From a virus: a stretch of DNA of 64,000 bases. A program made the translations under genes and the position numbers. The stretch's first letter is position 1. The number at the start of each line of letters is the position of its first letter. The notes beneath the pieces are model-generated. The model was not told where the DNA came from. It saw only the letters and a list, made by a program, of their open reading frames with translations, and did no database searches. Location of the stretch: the IMG/VR virus record IMGVR_UViG_3300010885_072825, positions 75,591 through 139,590 of that record. The stretch is one strand, 5' to 3'. Below, in pieces: positions 9,291-31,794 of the stretch.

Positions 9291-9362
9291 GAGGTCTTCG
9301 CTGCTCAGCATCACCGCTGAGACTTCACCGCCTCGTGTGAATCGACCCTATGTCAACTCACA
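9291..9362 (-). promoter_or_regulatory. Structured 5' leader with two hairpins downstream of a TATAAATA late promoter
   Basis: TGTGAGTTGAC/GTCGATTCACA stem with G-U pairs; GAGG..CTCAGC/GCTGAG..CCTC stem. Confidence 0.55.
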
Positions 9363-9416
9363 TTCTATTTATAATTTATTGAACTGAATAAAATCAAATT
9401 TCAGTAAATAAAATAA

Positions 9417-9602
9417 TCATTTGATTGCTTGAAATTCAATTTGTCTAATTCCATCACGCATTGGCAAAAAGACCGGCATATTATTGCCTGCTTTGAAGTA
9501 TTCTTGTTCCTTGAGTTCTTTTGCAATTTTATCAATATAAAGTTTGGCTTTGTCATCACTAAGATTCCCAACTTCAACATATGCTATCAAAATAGTTTCC
9601 AT
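9417..9602 (-). CDS. Hypothetical protein
   Basis: 61 aa with AAGGA RBS. Confidence 0.6.
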   Translation of the reverse strand: METILIAYVEVGNLSDDKAKLYIDKIAKELKEQEYFKAGNNMPVFLPMRDGIRQIEFQAIK

Positions 9603-9653
9603 TTAATTCCTTTTTTAAATTAAATCAAATTATATGCAGCAAATAATTAGAAA

Positions 9654-10277
9654 TCAAATCTGAGGAAATAATATTTGAGTCATGAAAGTTTTAGCAGACT
9701 GTTCACCAATAATATTTTTCAATGCTCGGAATGTATGTTCATTCTGACGTTGTTTTTCACAATATCTATTTTGACCAATAGTAATTTCAGCAACATCACC
9801 TAATTCAGTTTGTAAAGTAGTCAAATAAGCGGTCAACACTCGCTTAGCTTCGTCTGCTATTAACCGCATTTCTGCTTCATCTGGGCGTGCTGCTATCCAG
9901 TGATCACTGAATATATCGCCCCATGCTGGTCGTTCACGTTGTTTGACAATTGCAATGTCACTGAATGGTTTGAGTGGTTTGCTATTTGTTGGACTCAAAT
10001 CTAAGAACACACCAGTGACTTTATTCTCACCCGCAATTACATCAAAGCCAAAGATGGGTGCTGTGTCATTAGCACGTGGAAAAACACAACAGTGAACTAC
10101 CATAAATCTGTCTTGGTTGAAAATTTCAATATGTGCTAGACGAAATCGATCACTTGAATATCTATAATTTTCCCAACCCCAGTCTTCAGTTGGTATTTCG
10201 GTCAAATTAGACTGACTTAATATTATTGCGTGTAATTCTCGAGCCAGGTTATCTAGAAAATGAATATAGTTCATCAT
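9654..10277 (-). CDS. Ferredoxin-dependent bilin reductase (PcyA/PcyX/pre-PcyA-like)
   Basis: FRLAHIE, VVHCCVFP, PIFGFDVIAG, DLSP, PAWGDIFS and QNRYCEKQRQNEHT all align with PcyA motifs. Confidence 0.9.
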   Translation of the reverse strand: MMNYIHFLDNLARELHAIILSQSNLTEIPTEDWGWENYRYSSDRFRLAHIEIFNQDRFMVVHCCVFPRANDTAPIFGFDVIAGENKVTGVFLDLSPTNSKPLKPFSDIAIVKQRERPAWGDIFSDHWIAARPDEAEMRLIADEAKRVLTAYLTTLQTELGDVAEITIGQNRYCEKQRQNEHTFRALKNIIGEQSAKTFMTQILFPQI

Positions 10278-10761
10278 AAATCTTTATTATCCATTCGAAT
10301 GATTTGATTGCTAGATCGGGATCTATATGTTTGGTATTGTTTCTAATAAAATCAATGGTTCCTGCTCTATCAATATAAGTCAAATAATTCAATTTGATTG
10401 GTTGTCGATCAGCAATAATAGAACCTCCGTAGAGATCTCCCAAATAATGCACATAAATAGGCGCCCAAATATCTTGGTCAGATAAAGTATTCAACCAAGA
10501 AATATATGCTTGAGCGGTTTTTGTTATTTTGCCTGGTGACTTTAGTGTTAATAAATCTTGTGAAATTAAATTCGATCTCATGAGTTCTGTATCGGCAAAT
10601 AAATCACGTGCTTCAAAATGACTGTAGATCAAAATTAAATTGTAGAGATGATTGGACCATTCTGTTTTTGTAAGTTCGCCAGCAATCATTAGTTGACTCC
10701 AAGCAGTTTTTTCTGCTTGATGGTGAATATCAGATATAACGTCTTTTATTGATAGTGTCAT
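10249..10761 (-). CDS. Heme oxygenase (compact phage HemO type)
   Basis: Proximal H..AE motif (HHQAE) and distal YVHYLGDLYGG; adjacent to the bilin reductase. Confidence 0.85.
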   Translation of the reverse strand: MTLSIKDVISDIHHQAEKTAWSQLMIAGELTKTEWSNHLYNLILIYSHFEARDLFADTELMRSNLISQDLLTLKSPGKITKTAQAYISWLNTLSDQDIWAPIYVHYLGDLYGGSIIADRQPIKLNYLTYIDRAGTIDFIRNNTKHIDPDLAIKSFEWIIKIYDELYSFSR

Positions 10762-26463: not shown

Positions 26464-27885
26464 TCAATTTTCATCATAAACTTTTGCAAGTTCTTTCATT
26501 TTAGTGGGATTACGAAGCTTTGTCAATGCCTTGCTTTCAATCTGTCGAACTCGTTCTCGAGTCACATTAAACTCACGACCAATTTCTTCTAATGTGTATT
26601 CATTCTTTGCACCAATTCCGAACCGCATTCGAATCACACGTTCTTCCTTGCTATTCAAACTGTTGAGTACTCTGCCAACCGCTCGGCTTTTGTCAACTGC
26701 ATTCAGATTCTCAATTACGTTTACGCTGGATTCATCTGAAATCAGTTCACCAATTGTATTTTCAGAATCTTGACTTGCGGGACGATCCAAACTGGTTGGT
26801 TCAATAGCTGCTCGCTGTGCTTGTATAATTTTCTCCACTGATAGATTGATTAGTGGTGACAGCTCTTCCGCAGATGGTTCTCGACCAGTCTTATAAACCC
26901 AGTCACGAGTTGCCAATTTAATTTTTTTAATATTATCTAGAATGTGTCCAGGAATTCTGATGGTCTTGGTTTGTTCACCCAGTGCTTTCATAATGCCCTG
27001 TCGGATCCACCAGGTTGCGTATGTGGAAAAACGATAACCCAATTGCCACTTATATCTTTCAACAGCTTTGATGAGTCCAATATTACCTTCTTGAATTAGA
27101 TCAAGCAGAATCTGTTGATTATTGTGACTGTATTTCTTAGCAACACTGACCACTAGACGCAAGTTACTGACCACCATCTTTTGAATGGCCGCATCCTTCA
27201 AACTGTTCTGCGTCTTAAGTGTTCTGACAATTGACCGAAGTTCTTCACTGGTTAAACCGGTTTGATTGACCAGGGTTTCAATTTCAGCAACTATACCAGC
27301 AATTGATTCAGACTGTTCTGTTTGGAATTTTTGCCAGGACAGTGGCAATTGCTTGCTACCAATTTGAGTTTCTGAACCAATGTATTCTTGAATAAAATCA
27401 GTTCTAGTGATTCCGGATTTTTGAGCCAGTCGAAGCATCGCACCATCACAGGCCGTGATTTTTTGATTCAATCGAGTAATTTGATCAATTAGAGTTGCAA
27501 TACTAGCTGAATTAATTGGCAGATCATTAAATTTCTGTACCAGTTCAGCCTTCTTAATCGTATCTAAAAGATATTCTTTTGCCAGAGATTTTACAATTGC
27601 TAGATTTTCCGGAGTGATATTTGCATCTTCCAGTTCTAGATCAAACACATCAGTTGGTAAAACAGTTTGTTTTTCAATACCATCAATCCAACCAATTATG
27701 GTATTAACTGTGAGTGGGATTGCAAAAAGGGTATCGATAATGATACGCTTACTGTTTTCAATTTGTTGGCTGATTTCAATCTCTTGCTTGTGATTGATCA
27801 GCGGCGCCTTCTTCACATCATTAAGATAAAGTTTAATCGGGTCTTGATACCCCGTTGGGTCTTTTTCTTTGGTCACTGTCTTCAC
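26464..27885 (-). CDS. rpoD: RpoD-like sigma70 factor lacking region 1.1
   Basis: DPIKLYL (region 1.2), non-conserved region, NLRLVVSVAKKY, DLIQEGNIGLIKAV, FSTYATWWIRQ, TLEEIG...VTRERVRQIE. Confidence 0.92.
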   Translation of the reverse strand: MKTVTKEKDPTGYQDPIKLYLNDVKKAPLINHKQEIEISQQIENSKRIIIDTLFAIPLTVNTIIGWIDGIEKQTVLPTDVFDLELEDANITPENLAIVKSLAKEYLLDTIKKAELVQKFNDLPINSASIATLIDQITRLNQKITACDGAMLRLAQKSGITRTDFIQEYIGSETQIGSKQLPLSWQKFQTEQSESIAGIVAEIETLVNQTGLTSEELRSIVRTLKTQNSLKDAAIQKMVVSNLRLVVSVAKKYSHNNQQILLDLIQEGNIGLIKAVERYKWQLGYRFSTYATWWIRQGIMKALGEQTKTIRIPGHILDNIKKIKLATRDWVYKTGREPSAEELSPLINLSVEKIIQAQRAAIEPTSLDRPASQDSENTIGELISDESSVNVIENLNAVDKSRAVGRVLNSLNSKEERVIRMRFGIGAKNEYTLEEIGREFNVTRERVRQIESKALTKLRNPTKMKELAKVYDEN

Positions 27886-28765: not shown

Positions 28766-29011
28766 TCAATTCAATTTTTTTATTTCACGATCATAGATAT
28801 GATTATAAAGTTCATTGACTTCCAACATTCTAAAATAAGTCTCGGTTGGTAACCCTATTTTCATTTCCAAAAATGATTCCCGGGAAATTTCAGTCACAAG
28901 AAATTCACTCCCACAACTACCATCAACTTCAACAATTGCACCATGGCTTATTCCATTATCGGTAAGATGATCTGAAATCAATTCTTCATCGACATAGATT
29001 ACTCGAACCAT
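28766..29011 (-). CDS. Hypothetical protein
   Basis: 81 aa. Confidence 0.55.
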   Translation of the reverse strand: MVRVIYVDEELISDHLTDNGISHGAIVEVDGSCGSEFLVTEISRESFLEMKIGLPTETYFRMLEVNELYNHIYDREIKKLN

Positions 29012-29290
29012 TTAAATAGTGTCTTTTTTCAAGGAATCTTTAATAGTCGCGCTTTTTATATGCGCCGTGTTATCTTCATCAATTGTCAAAACTGCTTTTT
29101 TAAATTTAATAGACCCTTTGGTATGTGAATTATTTGGTGATTCTTTGGTAGACCAACTCATATTTGATTCTATGTGATTGACATAAAATGTTCGTCCAGC
29201 CGTTTTTGCTACCCAGGGCGGAACTGTTTGATCTTCCAAATGTTTCTTATTGAAATGAATCACTAGATCTCGGCAATATATCTTTTCCAT
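29012..29290 (-). CDS. Conserved hypothetical protein
   Basis: AAGGAG RBS; TATAAATA upstream. Confidence 0.7.
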   Translation of the reverse strand: MEKIYCRDLVIHFNKKHLEDQTVPPWVAKTAGRTFYVNHIESNMSWSTKESPNNSHTKGSIKFKKAVLTIDEDNTAHIKSATIKDSLKKDTI

Positions 29291-29518
29291 ATTTCTCTCC
29301 TTAATTGGTTGATTGGTCAGACAGAAGGAATCTCAGTCTGAAAACAAACTGAGATTCCAAATTTCTATTTTTTTGAAAGATTATCTAACGCATGTTTATA
29401 TTTATAGTTGATTTTTTATTCGAAATCAAATCAATCTGCTCGACTATGTGATTCTGCTCGGATACCATGCTGAATAAGAACTGCCACATAAGCGTAGGTA
29501 GCAAGTTCCTTGAGTGTC

Positions 29519-30890
29519 ATAGTACCTCAAATCATATAATATCTTAAACTAGTTTAAGATATCACTACTATTATGATTGAGTCTTTGTTTTTTTCCAAGA
29601 GAACTATTTGTGCCCTTGTGTGTTTTCTTAGCTAGAGCGCCCAGACCTCTAGCCAAGATATTACGTGCGGCATTAGTATCTGCGTCGCTGTCGTAACCAC
29701 AATGTACACACACGAAATATTCGCCCCTGCGACTATCTGCATGTACATGCCCACATTCGCTACACATCTGAGATGTATAGGCAGGATTTATCCGAAATAC
29801 ATGAACGTCATGTTCAGCAGCTAACTCCTCAATCCGGTTGTTGATATAACTTAAACACCATGCATGGTTTTTATATCCCCAACTTTTACCTGTTTTCATA
29901 CCAGTTAAATTTTCGGTAATCAAATAGTCTATTGCATCAAAATTAATGTCGCGTTTCAATGAATAATTAATTTCATTACGTAAAAAATTTCTAGCTCGTT
30001 TTTGTGCTTTACTACCATGTTTCTTTGAAGCAACAATATCCATGATTTGATCAATTGGCAATCCCCTTTTGTGTGTGGTTTCCATATGCCCATCATCTCT
30101 AGCAATTAACTTTTTACGACCAATATCAATTGCTTGAATCTTAGTTATGTCATTGCTCAAATTGACTGTTTTGTGAAAATAAAATCCCAATGACCCGTCA
30201 TTATTCACTCGTAACGAATTGGTCTTTAAAACAAATCCCCTGTCAATTAATTTTTTCATATGACGCGTTAACACAAGCGGAATATAAAAATTACCCCGCA
30301 TGAAGGAAGATATTTTAATCCAATACTCACAAATCTTAGTATCTTTTGATTTTTCTATTGAAATAAATCTTGAATCCAGTTCAATATTAACTGAGTTAAT
30401 ATCAACTTGCAATAGACCCGAATTATATTTTGTCAATATCTCTCGTTGATATTTTTTTAAATTCTCAGAATTCCTAGCTAATTTGACTTTAACTGTAATA
30501 GATCTAGCTATTGCTACTGCTTGTTTGGCTAAAACTTGACTCATCCGAGCAGGAAATGGCAATGCTGCAACTATTTCTTTGGGAAGAAAGTTTGGTATTT
30601 GATCAAAATCATATATCAACTTGTTGACTAATTTATGTAATTCAAATTTATATAAGTCGAAAGGAGTATTCAAACGTGTTTGTTTCCCTGTATTCGCCAA
30701 TACGGGATTATAATTACTAATGCGGATATTGTTTTTATTGGGTTTCTTCGCCATTAGTCAATTCCAAAATTAGTTTTTCTTATACAACCAATTACAAAAA
30801 GATGTTTATAATTCATCAAAAACTTTATGTTTCCTACTTGTATTTATACTAGAAATATAGTATTGTTTGCAATATGAATGAAAATAAATA
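29519..30890 (-). mobile_element. Non-autonomous TnpB-only element (IS200/IS605/IS607-derived), about 1.37 kb
   Basis: Boundaries defined by the split gene with a 3-nt TAT ambiguity; right-end palindrome; no tnpA. Confidence 0.75.
29549..30754 (-). CDS. tnpB: TnpB RNA-guided endonuclease
   Basis: RuvC-I IDIG, RuvC-II ENL, YTSQMCSECG...CVHCG zinc finger, RuvC-III DADTNAARNI. Confidence 0.9.
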   Translation of the reverse strand: MAKKPNKNNIRISNYNPVLANTGKQTRLNTPFDLYKFELHKLVNKLIYDFDQIPNFLPKEIVAALPFPARMSQVLAKQAVAIARSITVKVKLARNSENLKKYQREILTKYNSGLLQVDINSVNIELDSRFISIEKSKDTKICEYWIKISSFMRGNFYIPLVLTRHMKKLIDRGFVLKTNSLRVNNDGSLGFYFHKTVNLSNDITKIQAIDIGRKKLIARDDGHMETTHKRGLPIDQIMDIVASKKHGSKAQKRARNFLRNEINYSLKRDINFDAIDYLITENLTGMKTGKSWGYKNHAWCLSYINNRIEELAAEHDVHVFRINPAYTSQMCSECGHVHADSRRGEYFVCVHCGYDSDADTNAARNILARGLGALAKKTHKGTNSSLGKKQRLNHNSSDILN

Positions 30891-31230
30891 ATACTTTGTG
30901 TCATTGATCCACCTGGATTCCAAACTCGGACGCCGCCTTGATAACTGTCTTTGCGAGCAATTCCAGCTGCCACCAATTCCTTGGCAAACTTGGAATTCGC
31001 CGGGCGAATAATTGCCCAGGCAAAACCACAATAAAATGGTTCAGGATTCTTGGCGAGATAGTCGGCTTATGCCTTTTGTGCAGCAGTCCAAGCCATATTG
31101 TGAATTTCAATTGCAGTAGGCATCTTGTTGCTCCAACAAATTATTCCTTATCATATAATTCAAAAACCTGTTTGTCAACAGTTGATTTATTTCTCAATCC
31201 AATAAATAATTGGGAAAATAGAGATCACCC

Positions 31231-31794
31231 ATGTCAACCACACTTCTTATGAACGCTGACTTTTCTCCACTCAGCATAATTCCACTCAGCACAGTATCTT
31301 GGAGAGAAGGCATCAAAATAAGCTTTCTTGATCATGCCAAGACACTTGAGTACTATGACGATTGGTTCGTGCATAGCCCAAGTCGAACCATGCAAGTTCC
31401 CAGTGTGATGATCAGCCGGACTTTCATCAAGAAGAAGAATTTCATCAGATTCACTCGCCAAAATCTTTTGATACGAGATAATTTCTCTTGCCAGTATTGT
31501 GGCACGATTTTGAACAACAATACACTAACTGTAGATCACGTTATTCCTCGTGTCCGAGGAGGTAAAACTCGCTGGGATAATATTGTCTGTGCATGTAAAA
31601 AATGTAACTCTGAAAAGGGACACAAATCAGTGATGAAACCCATGCAGGCTCCATTCAAACCCAGCTATTATGATTTAGTGGGGAATGCACAGAAGTTACC
31701 AATCGTGGTTCCTGATGCCAAATGGATCCCCTATTTGAATTGGGATCCTGAAATAATCACGGTTAGACCACCAAACAAAAATAATTTCAATTAA
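31231..31794 (+). CDS. HNH endonuclease (McrA-like)
   Basis: RD...CQYCG, TVDHVIP..RGG, NIVCACKKCN.EKG. Confidence 0.9.
   Translation: MSTTLLMNADFSPLSIIPLSTVSWREGIKISFLDHAKTLEYYDDWFVHSPSRTMQVPSVMISRTFIKKKNFIRFTRQNLLIRDNFSCQYCGTILNNNTLTVDHVIPRVRGGKTRWDNIVCACKKCNSEKGHKSVMKPMQAPFKPSYYDLVGNAQKLPIVVPDAKWIPYLNWDPEIITVRPPNKNNFN

Follow-up and report, generated by a model that had tools for sequence, protein, structure and literature searches.

We analysed a 64,000-nucleotide (nt) stretch of viral DNA (hereafter the window, numbered from its first letter), which forms the last 64 kb of the 139,590-bp IMG/VR record IMGVR_UViG_3300010885_072825, and found in it a mobile element of 1372 bp that carries the nuclease gene tnpB and splits a small conserved phage gene. 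A natural allele of this gene without the element was present in a metagenome contig (X3), and copies of the element were found at other sites. We consider it probable, on the evidence assembled below, that the element is a derivative of an IS607-family insertion sequence (IS) without the transposase gene tnpA, residing in a T4-like freshwater phage, and that its TnpB promotes homing of the element into element-free relatives that co-infect the host. The viral record, with an estimated completeness of about 35% (CheckV), belongs to a T4-like phage. Among its products are a major capsid protein of the Gp23 type (Pfam, 2.2e-94), a tail-sheath stabiliser of the gp15 type, thymidylate synthase and dihydrofolate reductase, and it has further auxiliary genes. 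Parts of the stretch occur in eight sequencing runs, all of them metagenomes, seven of them labelled freshwater and none of them an RNA run. A blastn search of the element region against 50,697 phage records gave no match. The element, its gene and the two parts of the interrupted gene are as follows.

29519..30890, minus strand: mobile element, 1372 bp (left end, tnpB, right end), delimited by the X3 empty-site contig and by the borders of other copies.
29549..30754, minus strand: tnpB, 401 amino acids (aa), with the RuvC triad D210/E281/D359 and zinc-finger cysteines C331, C334, C349 and C352 (Pfam, alignment and structural model).
30891..31123, minus strand: 5' part of the interrupted 106-aa gene, residues 1-77 (alignment with homologues; open reading frame (ORF) piece 30893-31123).
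29431..29518, minus strand: 3' part of the interrupted gene, residues 78-106 and the stop codon (alignment with homologues; ORF piece 29431-29520).

The upstream fragment of the interrupted gene (31123 down to 30893) translates as MPTAIEIH...GGSMTQS, and the downstream fragment (29520 down to 29431) as MTLKELAT...HSRAD followed by a stop codon. When 5.8 billion proteins were searched for relatives of the upstream fragment, whose internal stop was written as X, five homologues were obtained, each exactly 106 aa long and uninterrupted (95, 88, 84, 83 and 47% identity). In the alignment with these proteins the two window fragments abut with no residue gained or lost (...GGSMTQS^MTLKELAT..., where ^ marks the junction). 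A metagenome scan identified 36 loci that encode the gene; 34 of them span the junction and none of the 34 is interrupted, while the other two end at contig ends. The empty and filled alleles were then compared in DNA by aligning the contigs of four metagenome runs to window positions 28900-31500. The X3 contig (5017 bp, depth 26) joins position 29518 directly to 30891 and is about 95-96% identical to the window on both flanks; 1372 bases are skipped, and three letters (TAT) fit on either side, so that the element borders can slide by up to 3 nt. The filled junctions are crossed by X1 and X2 contigs with zero differences, and the window may derive from one of these two samples. Filled and empty alleles of the same gene thus both occur in freshwater metagenomes.

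The initial annotation of this DNA had been made from its letters alone. It had described the gene as split but reconstructable, had proposed that removal of about 1372 bp (29519-30890, with TAT microhomology) restores it, and had looked to relatives for an empty site and an intact fused ORF. The fragments tile the five 106-aa homologues exactly, the X3 contig carries exactly the junction that had been proposed, and the fused gene is intact in five proteins, in 34 metagenome loci and in the X3 contig. The agreement of the predicted junction with those found independently in proteins and in natural DNA is far beyond chance. The in-frame TAA that had been noticed in the 5' half is present as well, at 31067-31069, at a position where the two closest homologues have Q. 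The element was inserted without target duplication, adjoining AGTAT, in a small conserved phage gene of unknown function (PHROG 22149, annotated as unknown function; only viral hypothetical clusters in the Atlas), and this gene has since gained a nonsense codon, which shows its decay. Rescue of the host gene by a group I intron (IStron) was considered and rejected: an Rfam scan at E values up to 10 gave no such match (its seven hits were at chance level, all far under the gathering scores), and the host gene also has the nonsense codon.

Relatives of the element were sought on IMG/VR viral contigs. Among the matches listed in a profile scan, L199, L200 and L201 encode TnpBs of 50-51% identity and L202 one of 37%; single-protein scans of IMG/VR with P0003 or TnpB as the query gave no match, unlike the profile scans. 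These loci, together with the metagenome contigs, define the ends of the element and the sites at which it inserts.

30891..30895, minus strand: AGTAT, target motif and predicted transposon-adjacent motif (TAM), directly 5' of the left end (five left borders; TAM role by analogy with CboIStron).
30865..30890, minus strand: left-end block TA...TTCATTCAT.T.G.AA (columns without variation when the window, L200 and L201 are aligned).
29499..29518, minus strand: 20-nt right flank, predicted source of the guide (by position, following the TnpB/omegaRNA rule of PMC10690162).

Further X1 and X3 contigs follow the right end of the element to 29519/29518 and then enter an unrelated flank; at the left end they follow it to 30896/30895 and then diverge, the match running 5-6 letters into the flank as (A)AGTAT. 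Contigs that leave the element at its ends into other flanks indicate further insertion sites, and thus mobility. AGTAT adjoins all five defined left borders, namely those of the window, the other X1 site, the other X3 site, L200 and L201. In L199 it occurs 50 nt before tnpB, at a border that is not defined. The right end reads ACTAT (29519-29523), giving the junctions AGTAT^TA... and ...ACTAT^G; its last letters are ...GGTACTAT in the window and ...AATAACTAT in L200, which also ends in ACTAT. Right-end borders guessed by eye for L199 and L202 from ...ACTAT and ...AATAT were not established and were set aside.

By analogy with CboIStron we infer that AGTAT is the TAM. Given the 3-nt slide, TAT could instead form the start of the guide, the TAM then ending in AG; we favour AGTAT for the conservation of its five letters and for the precedent of CboIStron, where this ambiguity was settled likewise. 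Two candidate TAMs, AGTAT and CAAAG, had been put forward in the initial annotation. The former is found at all five defined left borders, whereas only the final AG of the latter recurs. The predicted guide source, the 20-nt right flank, is unique in the 139.6-kb record when up to four substitutions are allowed.

Two side observations concern the other copies. In X3, the summed contig depth over window positions 29500-30900 reaches about 114 on the element and about 26-30 on the flanks, the locus itself being empty; the excess indicates that the element family is more abundant there than this phage locus, although depth is not copy number. If the loose ends of 30 letters on the two sides of the other X1 copy were abutted, they would, as judged by eye, form one open frame on the plus strand, as would those of the X3 copy, but the two ends of such a pair may not belong to one insertion.

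The family to which the element belongs is indicated by its relative L200. There, next to a TnpB that is 51% identical to that of the window, a serine recombinase ORF overlaps the tnpB start by 17 nt. Its product has an HTH_17 domain at residues 3-49 and a Resolvase domain (4e-19) at residues 60-182 in Pfam, and it passes the NCBIfam transpos_IS607 equivalog with 179.5 bits (cut-off 110). At its left end the window element has AGTAT, TA and then TTCATTCAT.T.G.AA in common with L200 and the tnpA-less L201, and the window left end aligns with the DNA upstream of L200 tnpA; L199 is without the conserved block. Because L200 has an IS607 TnpA next to tnpB and the same left end, these comparisons point to the IS607 family, not IS200/IS605, and to a non-autonomous derivative that lost tnpA. 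About 20 aligned A/T-rich letters suggest that the window left end might retain a remnant of the tnpA start.

As the initial annotation had stated, no transposase was found in the element, and neither Y1_Tnp nor Resolvase was found in the 139.6-kb record. Since tnpA is absent from both, the window copy must be moved in trans. No terminal inverted repeat was found among the 25 longest inverted-repeat pairs of the element. Further copies or mini-elements were not found in the record either, where the outermost 40 nt at either end of the element matched only themselves (up to 8 substitutions allowed). The left-end interior is variable in one case: in an X1 contig from another copy, 53 nt just 5' of the tnpB start (30767-30821) are exchanged for 15 other letters.

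The 401-aa TnpB matches Pfam PF07282 (Cas12f1-like TNB domain) with 68.5 bits against a cut-off of 26.3. The claim that all three RuvC acidic motifs are kept was borne out by an alignment of 35 TnpBs, in which every sequence has D210 and E281 and at least 90% have D359, while the CxxC...CxxC zinc finger retains its four cysteines. Among 27 TnpBs at 45-98% identity, D210 and E281 are present in 27 of 27 and D359 in at least 90%. Sequence matches to proteins of solved structure, all over the C-terminal third, were obtained with Cas12f (1e-16), Mimivirus Fanzor2 (2e-05) and ISDra2 TnpB (0.002). An AlphaFold model built with 27 sequences has a mean predicted local distance difference test (pLDDT) score of 81.9, with values below 50 only at residues 1-3 and 379-401. 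Used as a Foldseek query, the model gave full-length matches (410-454 columns) to AsCas12f (5.4e-17; template modelling (TM) score 0.50), ISFba1 IS607 TnpB (8.3e-13) and ISDra2 TnpB (7.7e-11). Judged by its motifs and predicted fold, the protein is a member of the TnpB superfamily, in which it represents a divergent lineage.

The search for homologues (E up to 1e-5) returned 87 proteins: one is 98% identical (P0007), one 80% (P0008) and 25 are 46-52% identical, while the remaining near full-length homologues among the 87 have 34% identity or less. Across 185,579 species genomes, near full-length matches reached at best 27-32% identity among the 80 loci kept, and closer relatives may lie beyond these; no close bacterial or archaeal genome relative of this TnpB clade was found among the loci kept. 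Two observations made by eye concern the surroundings of the viral relatives. In L202 (3760-3790), the 37% relative, the tnpB stop codon overlaps (ATGA) the start of a gene that resembles a clamp-loader subunit; if the neighbour is such a subunit, the guide would be the first codons of an essential gene. In the tnpA-less L201 (2-1597, minus strand), the neighbour resembles a helicase-type protein with an intein, and about 660 nt without a long ORF separate the helicase-like gene from the left end of the element.

The element ends 30 nt after the tnpB stop codon, and any omegaRNA scaffold must therefore sit mostly within the ORF. RNA folding of this end and the comparison of related sequences gave three features.

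29519..29700, minus strand: predicted omegaRNA scaffold, overlapping the tnpB 3' end (RNA fold).
29596..29618, minus strand: conserved hairpin with a 6-bp stem in the tnpB 3' end (four-sequence covariation).
29539..29562, minus strand: perfect palindrome (12+12) that has the stop codon of tnpB in the loop and lies within a longer stem (inverted repeat I13, 100% complementary; folds).

The last 182 nt of the element fold with -54.2 kcal/mol, compared with -33.2 +/- 3.4 kcal/mol in shuffled sequences (z = -6.26; none of 200 shuffles was as stable). The protein tail coded by the structured stretch, residues 379-401, is the part of the model that is predicted to be disordered (pLDDT below 50). In the four sequences compared (window, L199, L200 and L202) the hairpin at 29596-29618 is fully paired, in 24 of 24 cells, and two pairs are changed on both sides; slid positions pair in at most 73.9%, and 35 of 500 shuffles reach the observed value. 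As it comes from four sequences in a coding region, this conservation is weak and only suggestive. The palindrome lies 20 nt inside the right end.

How the element might be transcribed was considered from consensus matches in and around it.

30841..30848, minus strand: TATAAATA box in the left end, possible late promoter (exact match).
31150..31178, minus strand: sigma70-like promoter TTGACA-17-TATGAT (11/12) upstream of the interrupted gene (consensus scan only).
29327..29358, minus strand: terminator-like 14-bp hairpin downstream of the interrupted gene (consensus scan only).

The perfect TATAAATA box reported in the initial annotation is present at 30841-30848 on the minus strand, but its designation as the element's own late promoter held only in part. 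In its favour, the phage really does use NATAAATA boxes phage-wide: the ATAAATA core has 65 occurrences in the record and lies at most 120 nt upstream of 44 of 160 crude genes in the sense direction versus 14 in the antisense direction, 36 of the 65 boxes being less than 30 nt before a crude ORF start. The letter before the core in 42 near-gene boxes is C in 19, G in 11, A in 10 and T in 2. Against it, a distance of 86 nt separates the element box from the tnpB start, the core of the box is preceded by the rare T, and in the other X3 copy of the element the box is shortened by a 1-nt deletion. Moreover, TATAAATA is not enriched in the window (5 occurrences versus 4.59 expected; 48 of 100 shuffles reach 5). 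In the alignment of left ends the element box falls opposite a TATAAATA of L200 whose end is 5 nt before the tnpA start, and L201 has no such box. The element box is therefore an inherited left-end feature, which may act as a late promoter. Because the near-consensus sigma70-like promoter and the strong terminator-like hairpin of the host gene are oriented as tnpB is, read-through transcription is an equally good source of the RNA.

Some further details of these signals may be recorded. The late-promoter-like box of the phage can be written as [C/G/A]ATAAATA, with two distance clusters, 0-9 nt and 20-29 nt before the start; the 0-9 nt class (e.g. ATAAATAAGGGATG) may be something other than a promoter. 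An ORF of 20 codons (30755-30810, minus strand, start at 30810) ends in TAATG and overlaps the tnpB start, an arrangement that suggests possible translational coupling.

Taken together, the anatomy of the element fits homing between co-infecting phages, which could proceed in the following way. The element would have arrived in trans through an IS607-type serine transposase like that of L200, with the crossover within the shared TAT. Transcription of tnpB and the 3' RNA would start from the early promoter of the host gene, from the left-end TATAAATA box, or from both. TnpB would process the transcript to an omegaRNA whose scaffold ends in ...ACUAU and whose guide is the next 16-20 nt or so of the split gene (29518 downward), and the TnpB-omegaRNA complex would cut AGTAT followed by sequence that matches the guide. 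The cut site would be present only in element-free alleles, since the occupied site reads ACTAT at this place. A break in an element-free co-infecting relative would be repaired from the element-bearing genome, whereby the element would be copied in ('non-restorative homing').

Several points weigh against this reading. Its assignment to IS607 comes from one tnpA-bearing relative among the five related loci examined, and tnpA is absent from the element as well as from a record that is about 35% complete. TnpB scores below every NCBIfam TnpB cut-off (guided_TnpB 62.9/100, IS200_TnpB 30.8/425, IS607_TnpB 27.4/350), and the Rfam scan found neither RAGATH-18 nor any other match in the element. The A/T-rich motif is the main departure from the family: the core here is A/T, while characterised IS607 elements need a GG core and have G-rich TAMs, according to the sections available to us (TGGG in PMC10690162; AGGAG and GAGGG in PMC11061315), although A/T-rich IS607 TAMs may be listed in the supplementary tables of PMC11061315. 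A single base, G versus C at position -4, would have to provide self-protection. Among possible targets, the X3 empty allele has 11 differences in 29248-29518, which may touch the protospacer, and the nearest readable DNA, that of L003 and L004 (about 80% identical), has AGCAT and several mismatches in the first 6 nt, so that only close relatives such as the X3 phage could be targets. Finally, phage DNA modification could block cutting by TnpB.

Alternatively, the element may be a stranded passenger that was moved in trans and is now merely carried, with a TnpB that restores the element only after TnpA-dependent excision or is ineffective on phage DNA, so that no homing takes place between phages. 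This is the less likely course in our estimate, yet one with substantial points on its side: tnpA was not found in the record; the TAA marks decay of the host gene, as a neutral insertion into a dispensable gene would lead one to expect; spread by transposition, which needs no TnpB, is indicated by the numerous other sites of insertion; and X1 and X2 alone yielded the filled allele and X3 alone the empty one, so that the two may not mix in one population. Against a passenger of this kind stand a tnpB that is full length and keeps its catalytic residues across 45-98% identity, a 98%-identical copy elsewhere (P0007) and the structured 3' end that is kept; in plasmids, moreover, TnpB activity alone drove IS spread, as reported in the part of PMC11870625 available to us.

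The scheme implied by the initial annotation was that of a TnpB-only element of the IS200/IS605 type, moved by a Y1 transposase through single-strand 'peel and paste'. An A/T-rich pentanucleotide target is typical of IS605 and not of IS607 (PMC10690162, as far as consulted), a perfect palindromic hairpin lies near the right end, and the NCBIfam scores do not discriminate (IS200_TnpB 30.8 versus IS607_TnpB 27.4). Nevertheless, the sole tnpA found beside a close relative, L200, is an IS607 serine recombinase and accompanies the same left-end sequence, the left end of the element is unstructured (fold z = 0.12), which leaves a hairpin at the right end only, and there is no Y1_Tnp in the record. 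The IS200/IS605 scheme was therefore given up as highly improbable. The phage might also have co-opted the nuclease, for example for exclusion of competitors without self-copying, or as an RNA-guided regulator. Phage-borne relatives of TnpB have been domesticated as regulators (TldR) in the reports consulted, and none of the 80 genome loci kept matches the present clade over its full length at more than 32% identity. A nuclease-dead regulator, however, does not agree with the intact RuvC triad, the flank that matches the guide is found only at its own locus in the record, and the element is plainly mobile (other sites, empty site) and has destroyed its host gene; we regard co-option as improbable.

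The homing reading can be extended to a joint one, in which a TnpB lineage without a close cellular relative among those examined, its guide RNA lying almost wholly within the gene, rides on IS607-type elements that have switched from a GG core and a G-rich TAM to an A/T core and an AGTAT TAM, and acts as a natural RNA-guided gene drive among co-infecting T4-like lake phages. In this combined form the proposal is tentative and less likely than not.

Other genes of the phage were noted as well. A free-standing HNH endonuclease gene (31231-31794, plus strand; Pfam HNH_5, 7.7e-17) is the divergent neighbour of the interrupted gene, with a CAATAAATA box 22 nt 5' of its start; as it adjoins the gene split by TnpB, two kinds of selfish nuclease gene lie side by side. 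A full-length RpoD-like sigma factor of 473 aa, with regions 1.2, 2, 3 and 4 and the non-essential region, is encoded at 26464-27885 (minus strand). A second, unrelated tnpB is present in the same phage (L002:1348-2586, record positions 9347-10585 or so), about 65 kb before the start of the window. It encodes a canonical IS605-type OrfB of 412 aa with HTH_OrfB_IS605, OrfB_IS605 and TNB domains, which in NCBIfam scores 322.9 bits with IS200_TnpB (below the cut-off of 425) and 284.6 bits with guided_TnpB (above the cut-off of 100).

TnpB is established as a homing nuclease for IS605 and IS607 elements (PMC10690162; 10.1101/2023.03.14.532601; both consulted in part), and the idea of phage homing by TnpB has already been published: a review (PMC13565253, as far as available to us) has 'transposon non-restorative homing' as a category, with co-infected phages or plasmids as the recipients. 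IS spread that depends on TnpB and is independent of TnpA was reported for plasmids (PMC11870625; restated in PMC13565253). In the literature found, and in the parts of it at hand, TnpA-independent homing by TnpB is proposed for phages and shown only for plasmids; our literature search found no experiment on TnpB homing between co-infecting phages. The element itself is a well-documented, ordinary member of a known family, and what is new here is its IS607 membership (L200 TnpA, common left end), the other insertion sites and the AGTAT/ACTAT pair. If TnpB cuts the empty allele, the locus would be a natural case for testing RNA-guided homing from one co-infecting phage to another, specified in full: the filled allele and a natural empty one exist, and TAM and guide are both predicted. 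A 401-aa nuclease of a divergent clade, whose five-letter TAM is rich in A/T, would be gained as well.

Of the systems described, the closest is CboIStron of Clostridium botulinum (PMC10690162, compared through the sections available). There, TnpA-S and TnpB read the same motif, and a one-base difference, TGGG/TCGG, was proposed to spare the occupied site. Both systems have a serine TnpA with an N-terminal helix-turn-helix next to tnpB (here in the relative L200), no inverted repeats and no target duplication. In both, the target motif coincides with the TAM (predicted here) and the right end mimics it with one base changed, which is AGTAT/ACTAT in the window; tnpA-less IS607 copies were likewise described there, and TnpB was proposed to cut the empty site. 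The phage element differs in its A/T-rich core and TAM, the lack of a group I intron (no Rfam hit), its T4-like phage host, a very divergent TnpB below the NCBIfam cut-offs and the 30 nt that follow the stop codon. The ISFba1 IS607 TnpB (PMC11061315, consulted in part; PDB 8IAZ) is of similar length (387 aa versus 401 aa), also has a five-letter TAM and matches the model over its full length (8iaz_A, E = 8.3e-13, TM 0.47/0.48), but sequence similarity is confined to the C-terminal RuvC/zinc-finger part, its TAMs are AGGAG or GAGGG, and its reRNA derives from RAGATH-18, which was not detected here.

Among phages, ISCaje1-3 of the Campylobacter phages CP220 and CPt10 (PMC2853527, 2010) are likewise TnpB-only ISs of T4-like phages that lie in different places in related phages; they were assigned to IS200/IS605, and the description of them available to us, on which the comparison is based, contains no empty-site, guide or TAM analysis. 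The free-standing homing endonucleases of T-even phages (Seg, Mob; PMC13565253, as far as consulted) have the same outcome as is proposed here, in that the co-infecting allele is cut and the gene is copied in at repair. The difference is that the present element would recognise its target by a guide RNA and a TAM, and that self would be told from non-self by the presence or absence of the element.

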